Positions 4,457-57,551 of a stretch of DNA of 64,000 bases are shown piece after piece. A model generated the notes under the pieces. It saw only the letters and a list, made by a program, of their open reading frames with translations. It searched no databases and had not been told where the DNA came from. Source of the stretch: Candidatus Parcubacteria bacterium (lineage in GTDB: Bacteria; Patescibacteriota; Minisyncoccia; Sungbacterales; SURF-37); the NCBI GenBank assembly GCA_003599755.1, contig QZJO01000011.1:2424-66423 (forward strand), in the 5' to 3' direction. Position numbers and translations under genes: made by a program. Positions within the stretch are counted from its first letter, which is position 1; each line of letters begins with the position of its first letter.

Positions 4457-4930
4457 TTAGCCGATTAATGTCCGGAGCGCGGGGAATCTGCGGCAGATCG
4501 GCAAGTTCGCGCACCAGGACTCCAATCCCCACACGCGCCCTGCGCGAACGGCGGCGAGGTATAAGAGCGCCGCGGCATATACGACGTGCTCGTCCACGAC
4601 CAGGGAGTTCGGGCTGGGATACGGGAATCCGAGCGGCGCATAGTACAAAAGCATGAGCGCGGCGCCAAGGATGGATGCTAATCGCACGCCGATGCCGAGG
4701 ATCAATGACACGCCCAACAGGGTTAATCCCCACTCGTTAACGAAGTTCGTGATCGGGAGGATGCCGGGGCTTGCCAGCCACTGATATAATTCGCCGAACG
4801 CTTTCGCGTTTCTCAAGTATCCGGCAGCCGACCATGCGGGGTTTACTATCTTCGTCACGCCGGCATAGAAAAAGAGCCATCCGAGCGAAATGCGCAAGAC
4901 GGTGAGCCAAATTTTTTGTGCGGTAGTCAT
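4457..4930 (-). CDS. DoxX family membrane protein
   Basis: MTTAQKIWLTVLRISLGWLFFYAGVTKIVNP... is a typical DoxX N-terminus. Start trimmed to ATG 4928-4930. Confidence 0.6.
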   Translation of the reverse strand: MTTAQKIWLTVLRISLGWLFFYAGVTKIVNPAWSAAGYLRNAKAFGELYQWLASPGILPITNFVNEWGLTLLGVSLILGIGVRLASILGAALMLLYYAPLGFPYPSPNSLVVDEHVVYAAALLYLAAVRAGRVWGLESWCANLPICRRFPALRTLIG

Positions 4931-4961
4931 GGCCTCATGATACCAAGATGGGTGCCGCCGG

Positions 4962-5627
4962 TTATTCACTGCCGGGAATCCGCGTCCCGTCGACCGCGCG
5001 CCAGAGGTACCACGAAGCGATTGAGGCGTATTGGCGCCATGGCCGGGCAAGCTCCTCCATGCGTTTCGGGCTCGGCATTCGTTTGAGCTCGTAGACGATC
5101 TGGAATCCCTTTCTGATGCCGAGGTCCCCGGTCGGCAGAATATCGGGCCGCCGCAGGGTGAAAAGCAGGAACATGTGCGCGGTCCAGACGCCGATGCCCT
5201 TTACCCGGACCAGGTGCGCGATGATCTCGTCGTTTGCCATGCGTCCGAATCGGCGGGGCTGGATAGTACCATCCGAGAATTTTCTTGCGAGATCTTTAAT
5301 ATAGAGCGCCTTTTGATTCGAGAGGCCTGCGGCGCGCAGTTTCGACATGGGCATGGCCAAGACCATTGCCGGCGTCGGAAATTGCTTGCCGCCGAATAGG
5401 GCAAGAAACTTCGCGAGAATGGACGAGGCCGCCTTGCCGGAAATCTGCTGATATACGATGGCGCGCACGAGCGCGCGGAACGGATCTCGATTGCGGCTGA
5501 AATCCGGCGGCCCGTGCCGTTTGATGAGCGGCCGGAACCGCGGATCCATCCGGAGGAACCGCACCGAATCAAAAATCGTACCCTGCTTGAGCGGCATTGC
5601 ATTGATGGGCCGCGGATAGCGCGGCAT
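4962..5627 (-). CDS. alkA: DNA-3-methyladenine glycosylase II / HhH-GPD family base-excision glycosylase (AlkA-like)
   Basis: HhH-GPD helix-hairpin-helix region (LVRVKGIGVWTAHMFLLFTLRRPDILPTGDLGIRKG) with the catalytic Asp context. Confidence 0.7.
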   Translation of the reverse strand: MPRYPRPINAMPLKQGTIFDSVRFLRMDPRFRPLIKRHGPPDFSRNRDPFRALVRAIVYQQISGKAASSILAKFLALFGGKQFPTPAMVLAMPMSKLRAAGLSNQKALYIKDLARKFSDGTIQPRRFGRMANDEIIAHLVRVKGIGVWTAHMFLLFTLRRPDILPTGDLGIRKGFQIVYELKRMPSPKRMEELARPWRQYASIASWYLWRAVDGTRIPGSE

Positions 5628-24048: not shown

Positions 24049-24428
24049 CAACACATCGGTGCAGTGAGTGTTGACTCCCCACGCCGCAACATGGCACTAT
24101 CGTTGGGTCACGTTGCAATTCGATCTGAAAGAATTTGCGGGCGTTTGTCGGGCGTCCGCCGCATACCAATAGCGCATGTATTCGCATATGATTGACGCAA
24201 TCATTCGCGCAGAGGGTGACGACCAGACCGAACAGGGCGAGGAAACCAAGGAAGGGGGCGAATCGTCCGAAGAGAGCAAATAGGCCAATCCCCGCGCCGG
24301 AATCCGGCGCGGGGATTGCGTTTGGCCGTCACTCTTGGCGGAAATCCGAAATCCTAAAAGCGTTTTGAATTTTTGATCATTCGATACTGTTTCGAGTTTC
24401 GATATTCGTGCTTCGGATTTTATACATG

Positions 24429-36144: not shown

Positions 36145-36156
36145 GCTCGGAGAACC

Positions 36157-36187
36157 AAAACCGCCCCGATGTTCATCGGGACGGTTT
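36157..36187. terminator. Bidirectional intrinsic terminator between convergent genes (AAAACCGCCCCGATG...CATCGGGGACGGTTTT)
   Basis: GC-rich hairpin flanked by an A-run on one side and a T-run on the other. Confidence 0.6.
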
Positions 36188-36206
36188 TGGCTTCAGCGGC
36201 GGCGGT

Positions 36207-42782: not shown

Positions 42783-42855
42783 GGATTTTTTCTACACCAA
42801 AACGCCATTAAAGGGAATCCGCGGACGGCGACTGTGCCGTCCGCGGAGTTCGAGA

Positions 42856-43584
42856 TCACTGCTCGCCCTGTTCGTAGGGCAATGCCGATAGGAGTTGCAT
42901 CCGTTCGCCGGATGCGAGCCAGGCCTCCCAGCGCTGGGGATCGACGAAGTACGATCGCTTCGTACCGTGGCGCCAGATGGAGCAGTTGATGCGGAGCCAG
43001 AGCATGATCCGGCCGAGTATCGAGCGATACGCGTACCCCGCTTCCTGATAGCGGAACCTCCGGAAGTGCTGTACGCCCCACGAAATCTGGATGCAGGGAG
43101 CGATGGCGAACCGCTTGCCGGCATCCTCGCCGAGCTCTTCTTCGGCGGCGGCCCGGATGCGGCGCTTGGCGGCGACGATGCCGCCGATCACCTGCTCGGG
43201 ATCCATCTTATGCGCGTGCGCCGCGCCGCAGGGCGCATGGCCGAGCGCGATGACCACGTCGATGTTCTTGAGCTTGAGGCCCTTGATGATGTGACGCACG
43301 AGGACTGCGCCGTCGGGCAGGCCGACGCTGAGCGGCGAATCCTCGGGCGCGAGGAGCGGACCGCCGTTGAGTGCAACCAGGTGCACGCGCGGACCGTTGC
43401 CGTGGCGCCGGCAGATGCCGGACAGGAAATCGAACACGTCTTCACTTTGGTCTCCGTCGCCGCAGATTGCGGCGACCACGCCCTGCTGCGGTTGGAGCCG
43501 GTGGCCGTCGACGTCCTTCAAGACGCCGAAGCGCCGCATCGCGCGATACTCCATTGCGTGGCGAAGGGTGAGCGCGAGGCCCAA
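42856..43584 (-). CDS. Divergent beta-carbonic-anhydrase-family paralog with altered dyad (C-G-D-G-D) and 100-aa C-terminal extension
   Basis: AAICGDGDQ ... VHLVALNGGP ... VVIALGHAPCGAAHAH keeps the Cys/His/Cys ligand spacing, but the conserved Arg of CxDxR is replaced by Asp. Start may be an internal Met. Confidence 0.5.
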   Translation of the reverse strand: MGLALTLRHAMEYRAMRRFGVLKDVDGHRLQPQQGVVAAICGDGDQSEDVFDFLSGICRRHGNGPRVHLVALNGGPLLAPEDSPLSVGLPDGAVLVRHIIKGLKLKNIDVVIALGHAPCGAAHAHKMDPEQVIGGIVAAKRRIRAAAEEELGEDAGKRFAIAPCIQISWGVQHFRRFRYQEAGYAYRSILGRIMLWLRINCSIWRHGTKRSYFVDPQRWEAWLASGERMQLLSALPYEQGEQ

Positions 43585-43723
43585 GCGGTATCCTCCCTTG
43601 GAAAGGGTTGGTAGCGTGCTCGTGAGCGGATTTGCTCACCGCCGCATCTTCCTTCTGGAATTCGAATATGTCAAGGGCGCCGCTACGCGAAATAGCCGCA
43701 TTTATGTGCGTTTTTTGCCTTAA

Positions 43724-43963
43724 CTAATCGAGGAGTACCTTTACGTGGTTCTCGGCGTCCATTTCCAAAAATCCCCCGCTTGTCGCAAGTTCTTTTTTTG
43801 AGCCGTCGGGCGCGGTGATGACCGCCTCGCCCGGCGCAAGCACGGTGATGAGCGGCCGATGGTGATCCAAAATCGTGATCTCGCCGCTTTGGGTTTTGAC
43901 GGTGAAGGCAGAGGCCTCGCCGTCGAAATCCACGCCGCGTAATGATGCAATGGTGAGCTTCAT
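43724..43963 (-). CDS. atpC: F0F1 ATP synthase subunit epsilon, N-terminal beta-sandwich domain only (79 aa)
   Basis: MKLTIASLRGVDFDGEASAFTVKTQSGEITILDHHRPLITVLAPGEAVI... is the typical epsilon N-domain; no C-terminal helical hairpin. Confidence 0.75.
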   Translation of the reverse strand: MKLTIASLRGVDFDGEASAFTVKTQSGEITILDHHRPLITVLAPGEAVITAPDGSKKELATSGGFLEMDAENHVKVLLD

Positions 43964-43971
43964 ACTTGTGC

Positions 43972-44268
43972 CTATGTGGCGTCTTCAAAATCTATGCCGA
44001 TGGAACCCGCATCCATCGCGCCGATTTTTTCGGCCGCAGATCTGTGCAGCGGATGGTTTCGATATGCGTCCAGTGCATCTCGATCGCGTACCATTACAAC
44101 GAATGCGTGCGTATATCCTTCATTCCATTTCGAGAAGTTTTTGCCGCACCGAATATCGATGATGCCATCGATCTGTCCTTTGAGCGTCCGAATGTCTTTC
44201 ATGATAGAGATAGTTTCCTCTTCTGTCGTGCCAGGTTTCCAACGGAATATCGCGATATGCGTGATCAT
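43972..44268 (-). CDS. Dabb-family stress-responsive dimeric alpha/beta-barrel protein, inserted between atpD and atpC
   Basis: MITHIAIFRWKPGTTEEE...GYTHAFVVMVRDRDALDAYRNHPLH matches the Dabb (stress-responsive A/B barrel) signature. Confidence 0.7.
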   Translation of the reverse strand: MITHIAIFRWKPGTTEEETISIMKDIRTLKGQIDGIIDIRCGKNFSKWNEGYTHAFVVMVRDRDALDAYRNHPLHRSAAEKIGAMDAGSIGIDFEDAT

Positions 44269-44277
44269 GAGTGTTTA

Positions 44278-44303
44278 TTCTAATGTTCTTAAGAACATTA
44301 GAA
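44278..44303. repeat. Perfect 26-bp palindrome TTCTAATGTTCTTAAGAACATTAGAA between atpD and the Dabb gene
   Basis: Read directly; the right half is the exact reverse complement of the left. 10 nt upstream of the Dabb start codon. Confidence 0.7.
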
Positions 44304-44351
44304 TGTACTTTGCGGATGCTGGCCGATAACTTAATGACCAGTGACCAATGA

Positions 44352-45776
<1,425 letters not shown>

Positions 45777-46718
45777 CTATGCCAGTGCGCTTTGCGTTGA
45801 GGTAATTTCGATCAGTTCCTTGGTAATGGCTGCTTGGCGCGCCTTGTTGAACTCGATCAAAAGCTTCCCGGAAATGTCATCGGCGTTATCCGATGCATTT
45901 TTCATCGCCACGCGGCGCGCGGAATGTTCCGAGGCGTTGGCCTCGAGCACAAGGTCGTAGATTTGCATGCGAATCAAGTGCGGCACAAGCGCGGCCAGCG
46001 CTTCGGCCGGGGACGGTTCGAAAATAAATTCGATCGGCTCGGCGTTGCGCCCGCCCGCTTCCGGGCTTTTGCCGAGCTCGGCGAAGCGGCCATGTTCGGG
46101 CACGATCTCATCCACGGTTTCGCGGATTTTTGCCATATCGGTCGGCAGGATTTGGCGGGCAAGCGGATCTTGGCGCAGCGTCGTGCGAAAATGCGTGGAA
46201 ATTGTCATGACGCGGTCCCAGGAGCCATCGACAAATCCTTGGACCAAAAGATCGGCAAGCGGCGTGATCTCTTCGGTATCGGCATAATCGCCAAAGCCCT
46301 CGAAGCGGGCGACAATATTCCAATTTCGTTTCTCGGCATAGCGGATCGCCTTGCGGCCCACCGCAATGACCACGAAACGATGGTCGGCGTCGGTACGGTA
46401 TTCGTCGGTCGCGAGCAATTCCTCCATTTTGCGGAATACTTGCGTGTTGAACGAGCCGGCGAGCCCTCGATCCGAGGCGACAAGCAGCAAAGCGGTTGCG
46501 GCGATCGGTCGCGCGGCCATGAGCGGCGAGAGAATCGGAGCGTTCGCCGATACGCGGCCGAGAATTTCAAGCGCCAAAAAAGCGTACGCGCGCGAGGCGA
46601 GCGCGAGTTCTTGGGCGCGGCGCATCTTCGTGGCCGAGACCACTTCCATGGCACGCGTAATCTGGCCGATGTTTTGGACCGCGCGGCGGCGGGATTTGAT
46701 TGTCTGGAGAGATTCCAT
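45777..46718 (-). CDS. atpG: F0F1 ATP synthase subunit gamma
   Basis: MESLQTIKSRRRAVQNIGQITRAMEVVSATKMRRAQ... and C-terminal ...ITKELIEI. Confidence 0.9.
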   Translation of the reverse strand: MESLQTIKSRRRAVQNIGQITRAMEVVSATKMRRAQELALASRAYAFLALEILGRVSANAPILSPLMAARPIAATALLLVASDRGLAGSFNTQVFRKMEELLATDEYRTDADHRFVVIAVGRKAIRYAEKRNWNIVARFEGFGDYADTEEITPLADLLVQGFVDGSWDRVMTISTHFRTTLRQDPLARQILPTDMAKIRETVDEIVPEHGRFAELGKSPEAGGRNAEPIEFIFEPSPAEALAALVPHLIRMQIYDLVLEANASEHSARRVAMKNASDNADDISGKLLIEFNKARQAAITKELIEITSTQSALA

Positions 46719-46720
46719 GG

Positions 46721-48247
46721 TTACATGCGCTTGGCTTCCTCGATCGCAGCCGTAAGCGCGGCTTCGGCCGCATCATCCAATGCGCCGGATTTGGCGATTG
46801 GCGCGAGAATAGTATCGCGGTAGCGTTTGTCGAGATAATCGAGGAGTTTGGCCTCGAACGCTTTGACGTCGGCGATGGCGATATCATCCAAATATCCATT
46901 GAGTGCCGCATAGAGCACTACCACTTGTCGCTCGAACGGCACGGGTTCGATGTCGGATTGCTTAAGAATTTCCGTGAGCAGTTCGCCGCGGCGAATTTTT
47001 GCTTTTGTCGCCTCGTCCAGATCCGACGCAAACTGCACGAATGCGGCCAGTTCCCGGAATTGCGCGAGTTCGAGGCGCAAGCGGCCAGCAACTTTTTTCA
47101 TGGCTTTAGTCTGGGCGGTCGAGCCGACGCGCGACACCGAGATGCCGACGTTGACCGCCGGCCGGATGCCGGCGAAAAAGAGTTCGCTCTGGAGGAAAAT
47201 CTGGCCATCGGTGATGGAGATGACGTTGGTCGGAATGTAGGCGGCCACGTCGCCCAGCTTCGTTTCGATAATCGGCAGCGCGGTCAGCGATCCCCCGCCG
47301 TGCTCTTCAGAGAGCTTGGCCGCGCGCTCCAAGAGCCGGGAATGGAGATAGAAAATATCGCCCGGATACGCTTCGCGCCCCGGCGGGCGGCGAAGCAATA
47401 GCGACAATTGGCGATAGGCATCGGCATGCTTGGAAAGATCATCGTAGACCACGAGCGCGTCTTGGCCGCTTTCCATGAAGTATTCGCCGATTGCCGCGCC
47501 GGCGAATGGGGCCAAATATTGCAGCGCTGCCGGCGCAGATGCGGGGGCGGAGACGACGATCGTGTAGGCAAGCGCGCCCTGCTCTTCCAAGAGCTTCACG
47601 ATCTTGGCCACTTTGGAATTTTTCTGGCCGATGGCCACGTAGATGCAGATCACCTGGCGGCGGCCCGGATCTTGGCGCTGGTTCAGAATCGTATCGAGCG
47701 CGATCGCGGTTTTGCCGGTCTGGCGATCGCCGATAATAAGCTCGCGCTGGCCCCGGCCGATCGGAATCATCGCATCGATGGATTTGATGCCGGTGTGCAG
47801 CGGCACGTTGACCGACTCGCGCGCGACCACCGAGGGCGCGTTTTTCTCAAGGCGATTTCTTTGGGCGTTTGCGGCATCCTTGAATATGACGCCCTTGCCG
47901 TCGAGCGGTTCGCCGAGCGGATCGACCACCCGGCCGATAAGCTCGCGGCCCACGGGGATGGAAAGCACCGCGCCGGTTTTTTTCACGCGGTCGCCCACGC
48001 GTACCGCATCGGCATTGCCGAGGATAATCGCGCCGATAAACGCTTCTTCAAGGTTTGCCGCCAAGGCGGTCACCTCGCCCGATGCGGTTTCGATCGCCAA
48101 GAGTTCCTGCGAAACGGCCTCGCCGAGGCCGGATATTTTGGCGATGCCGTCCCCGGTTTCGGTCACGGTCCCGATGCGTTCAAATTCGGGCTCGTCACGG
48201 AAGCCGGCGATTTCGCGTTTCAGTTGTTCGACGATTTCGTGTGCCAT
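46721..48247 (-). CDS. atpA: F0F1 ATP synthase subunit alpha
   Basis: Walker [12 protein letters not shown]; alpha-subunit conserved blocks. Confidence 0.95.
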
Positions 48248-48262
48248 GCTGCAGTCAGTGTG

Positions 48263-48649
48263 TTATCGCGATCCGGAGAACAGGCGGTTGAGTTTGCGCG
48301 CGAATGACATATCGAGCTCTTCTTCGCCGTCGACGGTGACGCGCGCGCCGGCGATGAGCGACGGATCGACGGCCGTCTCGACATGATCGGGCGCGGGAAA
48401 GCGCTTGCGGAATCGTGCGACGATTTCGTTGGATGCCGGCCGCGCGAACGTCACGCGGACCCAGCGGCCGCCGCGGCTTTTGACCAAGCGTCGTTCGATG
48501 GCCGCGACGATATCGTTCGCGCGCGATAGGTCGCCGTGCTTGGCGACCGCTTGGACGAATCGGCGCACGATGCGGGCGTGCTGGCCGGCAGGCGCTTCGT
48601 CGATGGCGGCAAGGAAAGCAGCTGCGTAGCGATCCGTAGTATGGCGCAT
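48263..48649 (-). CDS. atpH: F0F1 ATP synthase subunit delta (OSCP), short form (128 aa)
   Basis: Positional (between atpF and atpA) and OSCP-like start (YAAAFLAAIDE...); unusually short. Confidence 0.65.
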   Translation of the reverse strand: MRHTTDRYAAAFLAAIDEAPAGQHARIVRRFVQAVAKHGDLSRANDIVAAIERRLVKSRGGRWVRVTFARPASNEIVARFRKRFPAPDHVETAVDPSLIAGARVTVDGEEELDMSFARKLNRLFSGSR

Positions 48650-48654
48650 AGCGG

Positions 48655-49146
48655 TCAGCGGCTTTCGAGCGCTCGACGAATGAGCGCTTCGTCCACGGCC
48701 TTGGGATCTAGTTCGACGGTTTTGGCGATTGCCGCACGGATGATGCCCTGCGCCTCGCGGGAGACCGCATCAAGGGAGGCCAGTCGCTGGCGTTCGAGGG
48801 TTTGGGCCGCTTGGCGGGCGACCTCGTCTGATTTTTTCATCGCCACGGCGAGGATTTCTTGGGCGCGGTGCTTGCCCTCGCCCTCGGCTTTGCCGATGAT
48901 CTCGGCTGCTGCGGCGTCGGCTTCGAGGAGTTTCGCGGTGCGTTCTTCTTCGATCGCGGCAAGGCGGCGTTCCGCTTCTGCGGCGCCGGCGAGGCCGAAT
49001 TCGATCCGCTGGCGGCGCTCGGCCAATAGCGCCAAGAGCGGGCGCCAGACCAAGAAAGTGAGCGCGGCGAGGATTAAAAAGAAATTAACTCCCTGCGCGA
49101 TGAGGAGCCGCCAATCGATACCGAGTTGGTGGAAGAGATCGGACAC
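48655..49146 (-). CDS. atpF: F0F1 ATP synthase subunit b
   Basis: Single N-terminal TM helix then a long charged alpha-helix; positional. Confidence 0.8.
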   Translation of the reverse strand: MSDLFHQLGIDWRLLIAQGVNFFLILAALTFLVWRPLLALLAERRQRIEFGLAGAAEAERRLAAIEEERTAKLLEADAAAAEIIGKAEGEGKHRAQEILAVAMKKSDEVARQAAQTLERQRLASLDAVSREAQGIIRAAIAKTVELDPKAVDEALIRRALESR

Positions 49147-49161
49147 GGAACGCGAACGTTG

Positions 49162-49392
49162 TTATTCAACGAATTTGAGGATGAGCGCGGTTACCAGCGC
49201 ATAGATGGCGATGGCTTCGGCAAACGCGATCGCGAGAATCATCGCGGTCTGGACTTTGGGGGCTGCCTCGGGGTTGCGGCCAATGGCATCGGCGCCTTTC
49301 GAGCCGATCCAGCCGATGGCAACCGCCGGCGCGATCGTGCCGAGCGCCATGATGCCGGCGATCGCGAAGAGTCGAGCGGTTTCTGCTTCCAT
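49162..49392 (-). CDS. atpE: F0F1 ATP synthase subunit c
   Basis: Two-helix hairpin with GxGxGxG packing motif and conserved carboxylate (AIAFAEAIAIYALV). Confidence 0.9.
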   Translation of the reverse strand: MEAETARLFAIAGIMALGTIAPAVAIGWIGSKGADAIGRNPEAAPKVQTAMILAIAFAEAIAIYALVTALILKFVE

Positions 49393-49442
49393 GGGTTCTT
49401 TCTTGCGGAATTAAGCGGAACGACCTTTATCAATCATGCCGG

Positions 49443-50192
49443 TCAGTGATGCGCGGCATCTTCCCGTACGGCTGACGCGATGAACACGAGCGTCAGCATG
49501 GAAAAGATGAGCGCCTGCACGAACCCGACGAAGATTTCCAAAAAAAGAAACGGCAGGGGGATGAAGTATGGGACGAGGAATCCGACGATCGTCAGCAATA
49601 CTTCCCCTGCGAATACGTTCCCGAACAACCGGAACGAGAACGAGATGATCTTAACAAATTCGGAGATAAATTCAAGGATTCCGGCGAAGGTGAGGATCGG
49701 GCTTTGGAGCGTGAAAAACTTCCCGAAATGGCGGAAAAAGCCGATTGCGGTTACGCCCAGGATGTTGGTCGCGAAGACCGATATAACCGCAAGCGCCAGC
49801 GTGAAGTTGAGGTCCGCCGCCGGAGCGCGGAACAGCGGCACCAAGACGCGATGGCCGTCGTGTTCCTGATATAGGCCGATGGATCCGATGCCCGGCAGAA
49901 GGCCGAGCCAGTTGGATATAAGAATGAAGAGAAAGACGGTGGCGATGAGCGGGAAGTAGCGTACGGACAGGTGCCGGCTGCCGAACAGCGTATCCATGAG
50001 CCCAAGCCCCTGCTCAATGAAGAGCTCGACGATGCTTTGCAGCCTTCCCGGTACAGGGGCCAGCGAGCGGCGCAGCGCAAAACCAATCGCGGCGAGAAGC
50101 AACACCGCGATGGTGGAAAGCAGGAGGGCGTTGGTGACCGCGAGCGGTCCGAGGTGAAAAAGTTCTTCGGCGCGGATGGATATTTCGGGCAT
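49443..50192 (-). CDS. atpB: F0F1 ATP synthase subunit a
   Basis: Five-TM subunit-a pattern with the conserved Arg in the penultimate helix (FSFRLFGNVFAGE). Confidence 0.9.
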   Translation of the reverse strand: MPEISIRAEELFHLGPLAVTNALLLSTIAVLLLAAIGFALRRSLAPVPGRLQSIVELFIEQGLGLMDTLFGSRHLSVRYFPLIATVFLFILISNWLGLLPGIGSIGLYQEHDGHRVLVPLFRAPAADLNFTLALAVISVFATNILGVTAIGFFRHFGKFFTLQSPILTFAGILEFISEFVKIISFSFRLFGNVFAGEVLLTIVGFLVPYFIPLPFLFLEIFVGFVQALIFSMLTLVFIASAVREDAAHH

Positions 50193-55391: not shown

Positions 55392-57002
55392 TCAGTGTCT
55401 GAAGCCGCGGATCTTGCGGTCCGGGGCGGTGATCATGCGCCGCCCGTCTTGACAGAACGCGTTGAGAACCGATTTATCGCGGATTGAACCGGTGGAAGCG
55501 AGTAGTGTGTGGACGCCAGCATCGCGGAGCACTTCTGCGCCGTCCGGAAACGGAAAGAAGCTGTCACTGTACGCCGCCGCGCCTGCGATGGAATGTCCGG
55601 CGCGCTGTGCGAGGAGTACGGCGATGTGGGCCCCGAACCAGCGGTCCTTCTGGCCGACGCCGTTGCCGATCAGCATCCGATTGCGGACGATGCTGATGGT
55701 GTTCGAGAAGGAAGTACTGCCGACCGCCCAGGCGAGCATCATGTCATCCTCATCCTGAAGCGGCGGCATCCCGTGGTCCGCGGCGTCGTGGTACTTCAGG
55801 TCAGGATCTCTGAGGTTCAGCACATAGGTATAGTTCGGCTGGGTGACCCAGCCGCCGCGGATAGAGCGCATGCGCGGCGCCGTATCCAAGCTGTAGCGCG
55901 AGAGATTCTCGAGTGCCTGATTCGCGAGGAAACGGCATTCACCCTTTTTACGCTCCAGGCGTTCCACTGCGCTGTCGGTAAATGCAGGCGCCATAATGCC
56001 GCTGATGACGCGTCGCTGGCCGGGTGGCATGCCATGAGTGAGCAGGAGTTCGGCGATATCGTCATCCACCGGGAAGTTGAACCCCATGAAGCCGCCGAAG
56101 ATGGCGATCGGATCGCCATCGATCATGTTGCGGACGGCTGTATCGCGGTATGAACTGACCGCCGCGCCGCACGGATTTGTGTGCTTATCTGCGACGGCGA
56201 TGTACGGTACATAGCCACGGTTGACATCCCAGACAGCCGCGATGTGCGTTGTGGTCTGAAGCACCGCATCCGCATCGACGAGGTTGTTGTAGCTCGGCGC
56301 ATTGCCGGCCAGTTGCTTGAAGTTGTGCAGAGCGAGCGGATCTTCCCAGCCGCCGGCATAGTGCGCCGCTGGCGACTGCCATGGGTTTTCGCCGTAGGCG
56401 CATTCCTGGACCCGTTCGCCGATGAAGCCGTTGATCGCGCCGCGGCTTAGAAAGCGCGCGGAGTCGAGACTGTAGCGCGCGACGCGGCCTTCGGTGATGC
56501 CGGCCATGCGTCGTCGCAGCATGAACGAATCGAGATCTGGCGATTCGATAGCGGCCAGCGCTATGCCATAGTCCTTGGGGCTGCTCACGATGAGCCGCCG
56601 GCCCTTAGCGGCGGAGCGCAGCATGGCCGGACCGCCGATGTCGGTGAGCGCGAGAACGGATTCTTCGGTCGCATCCGGCAAGGCGATCGCTTCCTCGAGC
56701 GGGTAGAGCCCGACGCAGAGCAAGTCGAAGCGCGGTATACCGCGCTCTTCCCGTTCGATCTCCTGCTCCGGGCCGGTGATGAGGCCGCCGTGGATCTTCG
56801 GGTGGAGCGTGACCACGCGGTGATCCAGCATGGCTGGCTCGCCGGTGATGCCGGCCACATCGGTGACCGGGAAGCCCGCCTTGGCGAGGAACTTCGCGGT
56901 GCCGCCGGACGAGACGAGTTCCCAGCCGCGTTCGTGTAGTGCGCGCGCGAAGTCGAGAAACGGCTCATCCTTCTTGTAGACTGACAGGAGCGCTCGGGGC
57001 AT
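55392..57002 (-). CDS. purH: Bifunctional AICAR transformylase / IMP cyclohydrolase
   Basis: N-terminal MGS-like domain (RALLSVYKKDEPFLDFARALHERGWELVSSGGTAKFLAKAGFPVTDV...LHPKIHGG) and C-terminal AICARFT domain. Confidence 0.85.
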   Translation of the reverse strand: MPRALLSVYKKDEPFLDFARALHERGWELVSSGGTAKFLAKAGFPVTDVAGITGEPAMLDHRVVTLHPKIHGGLITGPEQEIEREERGIPRFDLLCVGLYPLEEAIALPDATEESVLALTDIGGPAMLRSAAKGRRLIVSSPKDYGIALAAIESPDLDSFMLRRRMAGITEGRVARYSLDSARFLSRGAINGFIGERVQECAYGENPWQSPAAHYAGGWEDPLALHNFKQLAGNAPSYNNLVDADAVLQTTTHIAAVWDVNRGYVPYIAVADKHTNPCGAAVSSYRDTAVRNMIDGDPIAIFGGFMGFNFPVDDDIAELLLTHGMPPGQRRVISGIMAPAFTDSAVERLERKKGECRFLANQALENLSRYSLDTAPRMRSIRGGWVTQPNYTYVLNLRDPDLKYHDAADHGMPPLQDEDDMMLAWAVGSTSFSNTISIVRNRMLIGNGVGQKDRWFGAHIAVLLAQRAGHSIAGAAAYSDSFFPFPDGAEVLRDAGVHTLLASTGSIRDKSVLNAFCQDGRRMITAPDRKIRGFRH

Positions 57003-57125
57003 GGTTGATTCTCCTTTCTCAAGGTGCGGGCGCGGCGGGATGCGCTGATAGATCAGCGCGGGAACGAAACTGCCTTATTGGTAGCTGAAATAGCGCTTTT
57101 GGGCAATTGAAAAATTCCGACGACA

Positions 57126-57151
57126 TTCTAACATTCTTGAGAATGTTGGAA
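57126..57151. repeat. 26-bp near-palindrome TTCTAACATTCTTGAGAATGTTGGAA upstream of purH (same length and TTCTAA flanks as the atp palindrome, different inner half-sites)
   Basis: Read directly; 18-bp core AACATTCTTGAGAATGTT has one central mismatch. Confidence 0.5.
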
Positions 57152-57197
57152 TGTTGATCCGGGGAGAATCAGCTACCAAATATACGGAGAAGACCGG

Positions 57198-57551
57198 CTA
57201 CTGCAGCGCGTCGATTTTGGCGGCGAGGATAAAATCGTTTTCCGAAAGCCCGCCGATGGCATGCGTCCAGAGCTCCAGTGCCACGTTGTCGTAATCTACT
57301 TCGATCGTGGGATGATGCTTTTCTGATTCTGCGAGAGCCGCGACTTTGTCCACGAAGTCCACGGCTTGCTTGAAATCCGCGAATTTGAATTCCCGCCGGA
57401 TCTTTTTGCCGTCGATGATATTCCAAGCCAGATCGATTTCCGGCTGCAGTCGCTCGATGGCATCGTGATCCAGTGGCGGCATGCCGCCTTCGCACGGAAC
57501 GCATTTTTTCTCGCGCAGCGATCCCCATTTTGGCAGATCTTTTTGATCCAT
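57198..57551 (-). CDS. phhB: Pterin-4a-carbinolamine dehydratase (PCD/PhhB)
   Basis: ...EKHHPTIEVDYDNVALELWTHAIGGLSENDF contains the conserved PCD HHP...H motif. Confidence 0.75.
   Translation of the reverse strand: MDQKDLPKWGSLREKKCVPCEGGMPPLDHDAIERLQPEIDLAWNIIDGKKIRREFKFADFKQAVDFVDKVAALAESEKHHPTIEVDYDNVALELWTHAIGGLSENDFILAAKIDALQ

Follow-up and report, generated by a model that had tools for sequence, protein, structure and literature searches.

In the genome of this Candidatus Parcubacteria bacterium, the distal part of the atp operon probably brings together three features that are unrelated to one another: an epsilon subunit of the standard form for the clade, a recently inserted Dabb gene, and an older putative operator separated from its regulator gene. 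We consider the three to be independent because the Dabb gene is unique to this genome at this position, because an epsilon subunit of 79 aa is normal in the clade, and because the closest relative, L007, has the palindrome without the Dabb gene. The same observations on Dabb and on the palindrome of L007 contradict the first-pass annotation, which had proposed that the Dabb gene and the palindrome substitute for epsilon regulation. The features concerned are listed below; the window, to which all the coordinates refer, is the whole 64-kb stretch of DNA analysed.

49443-50192, minus strand: atpB (Pfam ATP-synt_A)
49162-49392, minus strand: atpE (Pfam ATP-synt_C)
48655-49146, minus strand: atpF (Pfam ATP-synt_B)
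48263-48649, minus strand: atpH (Pfam OSCP)
46721-48247, minus strand: atpA (Pfam ATP-synt_ab)
45777-46718, minus strand: atpG (Pfam ATP-synt)
45777-50192, minus strand: upstream part of the operon (atpB, atpE, atpF, atpH, atpA, atpG)
44352-45773, minus strand: atpD, beta subunit, 473 aa (Pfam PF00006, E 6.9e-75)
44333-44356: tandem array of 3.4 heptads, consensus AATGACC (TRF score 34)
44269-44351: spacer of 83 nt between atpD and the Dabb gene
44277-44304: perfect 28-bp palindrome ATTCTAATGTTCTTAAGAACATTAGAAT, subtype 2 of the 13-2-13 family
43972-44268, minus strand: Dabb-family gene, 98 aa (PF07876, E 4.4e-20)
43724-43963, minus strand: atpC, epsilon subunit, 79 aa (PF02823 only, E 6.6e-18)

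Pfam assignments and coordinates uphold the gene order first described on the minus strand, a canonical atpB-E-F-H-A-G-D followed by the spacer, the Dabb gene and atpC. The Dabb gene starts 8 nt past the palindrome, and atpC starts 8 nt past the Dabb stop codon. At the amino acid level AtpD is 94% identical to that of L007 and 71-81% identical to those of other Patescibacteria. The palindrome had been given a length of 26 bp (44278-44303); it is indeed perfect and located in the spacer, but it extends over 28 bp with no loop. The TGAC(C/T)A direct repeats noted in the same spacer are present as the 7-nt tandem array, which overlaps the atpD stop codon, occurs once in the window and was not found in L007. 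Directly downstream of the heptads, the spacer contains a TAAGTTATC stretch that is common to the spacer of L008. Several other observations concern the surroundings of these genes. The delta subunit encoded by atpH has only 128 aa and matches positions 61-168 of the 172 of the OSCP profile, so that its N-terminal part appears to be shortened too. A 242-aa ORF directly downstream of atpC (42856-43584) has no Pfam match and has a TTGACA box in front of it, also kept in L007. G+C-rich hairpins of the terminator type are found in the window at 1460-1492, 24286-24318, 36155-36190 and 42816-42849, and contrast with the A+T-rich family palindromes (GC of 0.21 and 0.31).

As judged from its homologues, the short epsilon subunit is a lineage trait, the standard form in Parcubacteria rather than a truncation in the window genome. 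The product of atpC was correctly described as a beta-sandwich of 79 aa: the PF02823 match covers residues 1-78, there is no Pfam match beyond it, and the ORF stops at residue 79 with no C-terminal two-helix hairpin. A longer form produced by a frameshift or a downstream exon was considered and rejected, as the three frames past the stop codon are closed and the homologues stop at the matching position. The word 'truncated' was misleading all the same, the 79-aa protein being the normal form in the clade. Among 5.8 billion proteins searched we found 28 homologues, assigned where named to Parcubacteria, Giovannonibacteria or Paceibacterota. All but one of these have 79-86 aa, with a C-terminal ...VLxD and the same terminal residue; the exception (98 aa) has an unaligned C-terminal tail and is encoded on a 654-bp contig. 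We also examined the atp loci of 66 species-representative Patescibacteria genomes with a relative of the window atpC. Epsilon has 65-92 aa (mode 79) in 62 of these 66 species, and forms of 124-143 aa occur only in one Gracilibacteria, one Dojkabacteria-like and one further locus. The helical C-terminal domain would have been lost in an ancestor of the clade and not in the window genome. This domain normally blocks ATP hydrolysis, and for that reason its absence may fit a mode of life in which these organisms, thought to be fermenters, use F1Fo chiefly to pump protons at the expense of ATP. Naturally shortened epsilon subunits are known elsewhere, and all keep the beta-sandwich, the domain by which gamma is coupled to the c-ring, while part or all of the hairpin is gone. 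In most alpha-proteobacteria the epsilon C-terminus is truncated and non-inhibitory (PMC9317440). The window protein differs from the alpha-proteobacterial ones in that the entire helical domain is missing, a loss common to Parcubacteria. Our literature search found no paper on the epsilon subunit of Parcubacteria.

The Dabb gene is, on the evidence of gene order and composition, a one-off, recent and lineage-specific insertion that is incidental to the operon. Its identification was sound: the ORF is intact and its product matches PF07876 over the full length (profile positions 1-95 of 96; 72.6 bits for a curated cut-off of 25), resembling other Dabb proteins (stress-responsive dimeric alpha/beta barrel) in its size of about 100 aa and its single domain. 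The question of whether Dabb is always found between atpD and atpC could be answered in the negative. The arrangement occurs in the window genome only and in none of the 66 other atp loci, and a tblastn search up to 10 kb from atpC detected no homologue of Dabb in any of the 66 Patescibacteria species. In L007, whose atpD and atpC are 88 and 82% identical to those of the window at the nucleotide level, the order is atpD, palindrome, atpC; in L008-L011, which also have no Dabb gene, atpD runs straight to atpC. Dabb does not behave as a conserved atp accessory gene in the manner of atpI, being absent from L007-L011 as well as from the 66 species loci. The homologues closest to it, at 61-68% identity, are neighbours of DIT1_PvcA, acetyltransferase and luciferase-like genes or of a methyltransferase gene, and none of them is near atp genes. 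These homologues occupy unrelated neighbourhoods with no conserved functional context, and only in the window genome does a Dabb gene stand in an atp operon. The base composition of the gene (GC 0.48, GC3 0.54) also departs from that of the atp genes (GC 0.57-0.65, GC3 0.69-0.75). Dabb is probably co-transcribed with atpC, and nothing in the analysis ties it to F1.

Insertions at this junction are not restricted to the window genome. In about 12 of the 66 species, other, unrelated genes separate atpD from atpC (for example L012 9115-9742, L015 9583-10001, L027 8928-9394 and L045 6355-10001). They code for SET, 23S_rRNA_IVP (23S-rRNA-intervening-sequence protein), methyltransferase, PDDEXK_3 (PD-(D/E)XK) and membrane proteins, as well as for a 558-aa Cys-rich protein and a 1183-aa PKD/CARDB protein, and are usually lower in GC than their locus. 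The junction tolerates foreign genes and looks like an insertion hotspot, of which Dabb would be one insert. The palindrome motif was not found beside the other junction inserts in the 66 atp loci. The insert in L014 (2853-4529) codes for a member of a Cys-rich family that Pfam does not recognise (about 560-580 aa), and genes of this family also adjoin palindrome sites on L130, L089, L131 and L156.

The palindrome belongs to a family that has a second member in the window, in a different context:

57123-57154: second family palindrome ACATTCTAACATTCTTGAGAATGTTGGAATGT, subtype 1, between the two genes below
57198-57551: pterin-4a-carbinolamine dehydratase gene
55392-57002: purH

The copy in the atp operon scores 44.8 bits with the weight matrix, with no matches in shuffled sequence; at up to three mismatches it has no other match in the window and none in 100 shuffles. 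The second copy scores 49.9 bits, shows one T.G departure from perfect symmetry and precedes the start of purH by 120 nt. In L007 a perfect 38-mer occupies the space between atpD and atpC, and its 28-bp core differs from that of the window at two positions that mirror each other (A..T to C..G), within a spacer that is otherwise not alignable. As this copy stands at the atpD-atpC junction with no Dabb gene beside it, the palindrome was in place before the Dabb gene was inserted. Further copies separate atpD from atpC in L018 and atpH from atpA in L026 (a Yanofskybacteria atp operon), or stand directly after atpC in L008-L011; L026 also has a spacing variant, TTCTAAAATTCGTATAAGAATTTTAGAA, between atpE and atpF (1359-1386). 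The same operon contains two extra small genes between atpA and atpG (4553-5203). The link of the palindrome to atp operons is sporadic. Family sites were present in only 2 of the 66 atp-centred species loci. Scanning 1.13 Mb of such loci with the weight matrix added no others, and shuffled sequence gave no hits; among the 120 motif-selected contigs listed, no site lies beside atp genes.

Scanning public metagenomes with ATTCTMANNTTCTNNAGAANNTNNGAAT identified at least 120 contigs carrying such sites, from hosts with a GC content of 0.24 to 0.69. The consensus has a 13-2-13 layout, (a)AC-ATTCT[CA]A[CT]ATTCT-NN-AGAAT..T..AGAAT-GT(t). Among the matches listed, 84% of the sites are intergenic by a crude gene call, and the flanking genes are heterogeneous, with 18 convergent and 17 divergent contexts, a mixture as compatible with a dispersed repeat as with a regulon. 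A coherent regulon was sought by clustering the flanking genes and was rejected, the only strong recurrent neighbour among the matches listed being the regulator itself. The two half-sites resemble each other more than independence would predict; this excess of symmetry, seen inside subtypes and in the flanks as well, is unusual for plain operators.

This recurrent neighbour makes the family interpretable. Sites repeatedly come in pairs, spaced by about 300-320 nt, and each pair encloses a gene for a protein of about 90 aa that matches HTH_5/ArsR (E 3.5e-9); its nearest solved relatives in a PDB profile search are HlyU (E 2.5e-11), CadC, CzrA and SmtB. The winged-helix gene directly adjoins a site on 34 contigs among the 120 matches listed, and has one site about 15-95 nt upstream of its start, one overlapping its 3' end, or both. 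On L120 the sites bracket a 173-aa gene as well. The linkage was confirmed independently: three of three regulator genes picked by protein similarity alone were bracketed by two sites (45-53 bits), and at these three independent loci the bracketing sites were the only ones in 20 kb. At E 1e-5 or better, at least 6871 proteins belong to the regulator family, with generic names only. The regulator is about 88-95 aa long and has a short C-terminal helix.

There are two types of paralogue, each with its own subtype of site, and L120 bears both types and both subtypes. Proteins of type 1 end in ...SPYGK.F..FxKTF and are paired with AAC-flanked sites, the subtype of the purH copy. Those of type 2, to whose subtype the atp copy belongs, end in ...ILKFLRTLE, and their nine last codons, followed by the stop, are the palindrome itself (L156 2077-2346, L125, L170, L188 and others), so that the operator and the C-terminal helix share the same DNA. 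A minus-strand frame through the window palindrome (44278-44316) reads ...SAKYILMFLRTLE and then stop, like the C-terminus of a type 2 regulator (tblastn E 0.019). We rejected the possibility that it is the remnant of a regulator gene, as this reading is mostly dictated by the palindrome. In the regulator promoters a TATAAT box follows the site at a distance of a few to about 17 nt, and the site consequently covers the -35 region. This overlap, at the regulator's own gene, implies autorepression as far as promoter layout can tell.

The resemblance to ArsR/SmtB operators is clear in several respects: the protein is a small dimeric one of the winged-helix type, and its site is a palindrome that covers part of the promoter of its own gene. 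The sites of SmtB and CzrA have a 12-2-12 layout, which the 13-2-13 layout of the family resembles, the window copy being perfect and two-fold symmetric. SqrR, another repressor of the ArsR family, is a relative of HlyU. The family palindrome is built from the same tetranucleotides, ATTC and GAAT, as the SqrR core but in a different spacing. This core has been described as ATTC-N8-GAAT (bioRxiv 10.64898/2026.05.15.721447). The family departs from known ArsR/SmtB systems in that each half-site holds two ATTCT units, the second site overlaps the 3' end of the gene, the last nine codons of type 2 genes are the palindrome, and orphan sites occur inside operons. It also differs in the sensor itself. 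An alignment of 30 regulator sequences shows no invariant or near-invariant cysteine, and none of the known ArsR sensing sites (the alpha3 Cys motif, the alpha5 His/Asp/Glu site, the SqrR/HlyU cysteine pair) was recognised in it; we regard the regulator as having no recognised sensing site because of this lack of an invariant cysteine, and it has no recognisable alpha5 metal site, unlike the ArsR/SmtB sensors. Literature searches found no paper with the motif sequence and none on ArsR operators in Patescibacteria. The palindrome family is widespread in Parcubacteria and apparently undescribed.

The suggestion that the palindrome is operator-like is thereby strengthened, as the family brackets an ArsR-type winged-helix gene and overlaps the promoter of that gene. 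The window palindrome is best read as an orphan site, the putative operator of a winged-helix regulator of the ArsR family. The regulator gene was not found within the 64-kb window, and we assume that the organism has one. A sigma-70-type scan detected no promoter at the atp palindrome, and inspection by hand found no -10 box at the distances seen in the regulator promoters. The regulator would bind within the operon and hinder the read-through of RNA polymerase from atpD, and such hindrance would adjust how strongly the genes beyond it, at present Dabb and atpC, are expressed. We infer that a roadblock to read-through of this kind is the most likely action at the DNA level. An intrinsic terminator was rejected: the palindrome has a GC content of 0.21 and is followed by AAACACUC, with no U tract, and a terminator scan was negative.

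A broader version of this proposal is, in our opinion, unlikely. The palindrome and the protein of about 90 aa would constitute an undescribed module, with an operator that also codes for the C-terminal helix of the regulator, found throughout Parcubacteria and repeatedly recruited into atp operons, where it would control distal subunits, epsilon in particular. The proposed sites of recruitment are atpD-atpC (window, L007, L018), atpH-atpA and atpE-atpF (L026) and the position after atpC (L008-L011).

The palindromes might instead be REP-like dispersed repeats, possibly mobile or recombination-prone, with the bracketed winged-helix gene as the associated protein and the solo copies as non-regulatory relics; solo copies might then favour local insertions such as Dabb. 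REPtrons provide a precedent, being dispersed palindromes of the REP/BIME type with an associated gene flanked by the repeats, whose product is a tyrosine transposase. Like REP/BIME palindromes, the family sites are intergenic and dispersed, and two copies bracket a single gene, be it that of the regulator or the 173-aa gene of L120. The flanking genes are heterogeneous with orientations that look random, the symmetry is perfect and reaches into variable flanks, Dabb follows immediately after the palindrome, and the minus-strand reading at the palindrome resembles the C-terminus of the type 2 protein. Nevertheless, we find this explanation quite improbable. The associated protein is a predicted DNA-binding regulator with no nuclease or transposase domain, not a tyrosine transposase as in REPtrons. 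The copy number is low, with two sites in the 64 kb of the window and only the two bracketing ones in each of the three 20-kb loci, and the overlap with the -35 region of the regulator promoter is that of an operator. Moreover, the other atpD-atpC inserts are not flanked by the motif, and the C-terminus-like reading is mostly a consequence of the palindromic sequence.

Alternatively, the palindrome could fold into a hairpin once transcribed as part of the atp mRNA and so lower epsilon relative to beta, whether by partial termination, by RNase III cleavage or by stabilisation of the 3' end. A 12-bp stem with a 4-nt loop is possible, the 111-nt region has an MFE of -26.1 kcal/mol (z -2.7), and the half-sites covary, flanks included. 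Unrelated, perfect zero-loop palindromes are also found in the same spacer of L012 (9144-9195, 52 bp), L017 (5359-5402, 44 bp) and L056 (445-480, 36 bp). Such long palindromes are, however, not clearly commoner at this junction than in other intergenic DNA (about 5-6 of 66 loci for a rough expectation of about 4, an unconvincing enrichment), and the stem in the window is AT-rich with no U tract after it. Among 28 asymmetric sites between co-directional genes, the strand permitting G.U in place of a mismatch was the transcribed one in 14 and the opposite one in 14, which lends no support to a hairpin. The primary sequence is kept across the whole range of host GC, which structure alone would not require. 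Rfam 15 contains no match to the palindrome, its two matches elsewhere in 43400-44600 being at chance level. A role as RNA hairpin is, in our view, very unlikely.

Finally, it is highly improbable that the Dabb protein acts together with the palindrome as a replacement F1 regulatory module to compensate for the missing epsilon C-terminal domain, as the adjacency of the features at 8-nt intervals and the intact, full-profile Dabb ORF are outweighed by a short epsilon with no Dabb nearby in 62 of 66 species, by the Dabb-less operon of L007, by the outlying composition of the gene and the position of its closest homologues outside atp operons, and by the occurrence of the palindrome without Dabb and in many non-atp contexts.

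The reading that we prefer, that of three independent features, makes the Dabb and epsilon part of the locus ordinary. It leaves two by-products of some value. One is the observation that the whole inhibitory domain of epsilon is missing across Parcubacteria. The other is the conserved operator-regulator pair to which the palindrome led; a candidate DNA site together with its protein is useful in uncultivated Parcubacteria, where gene regulation is almost unknown. If the recruitment of this pair into atp operons were true, it would offer the first experimentally tractable handle on the transcriptional control of energy metabolism in bacteria of the candidate phyla radiation.
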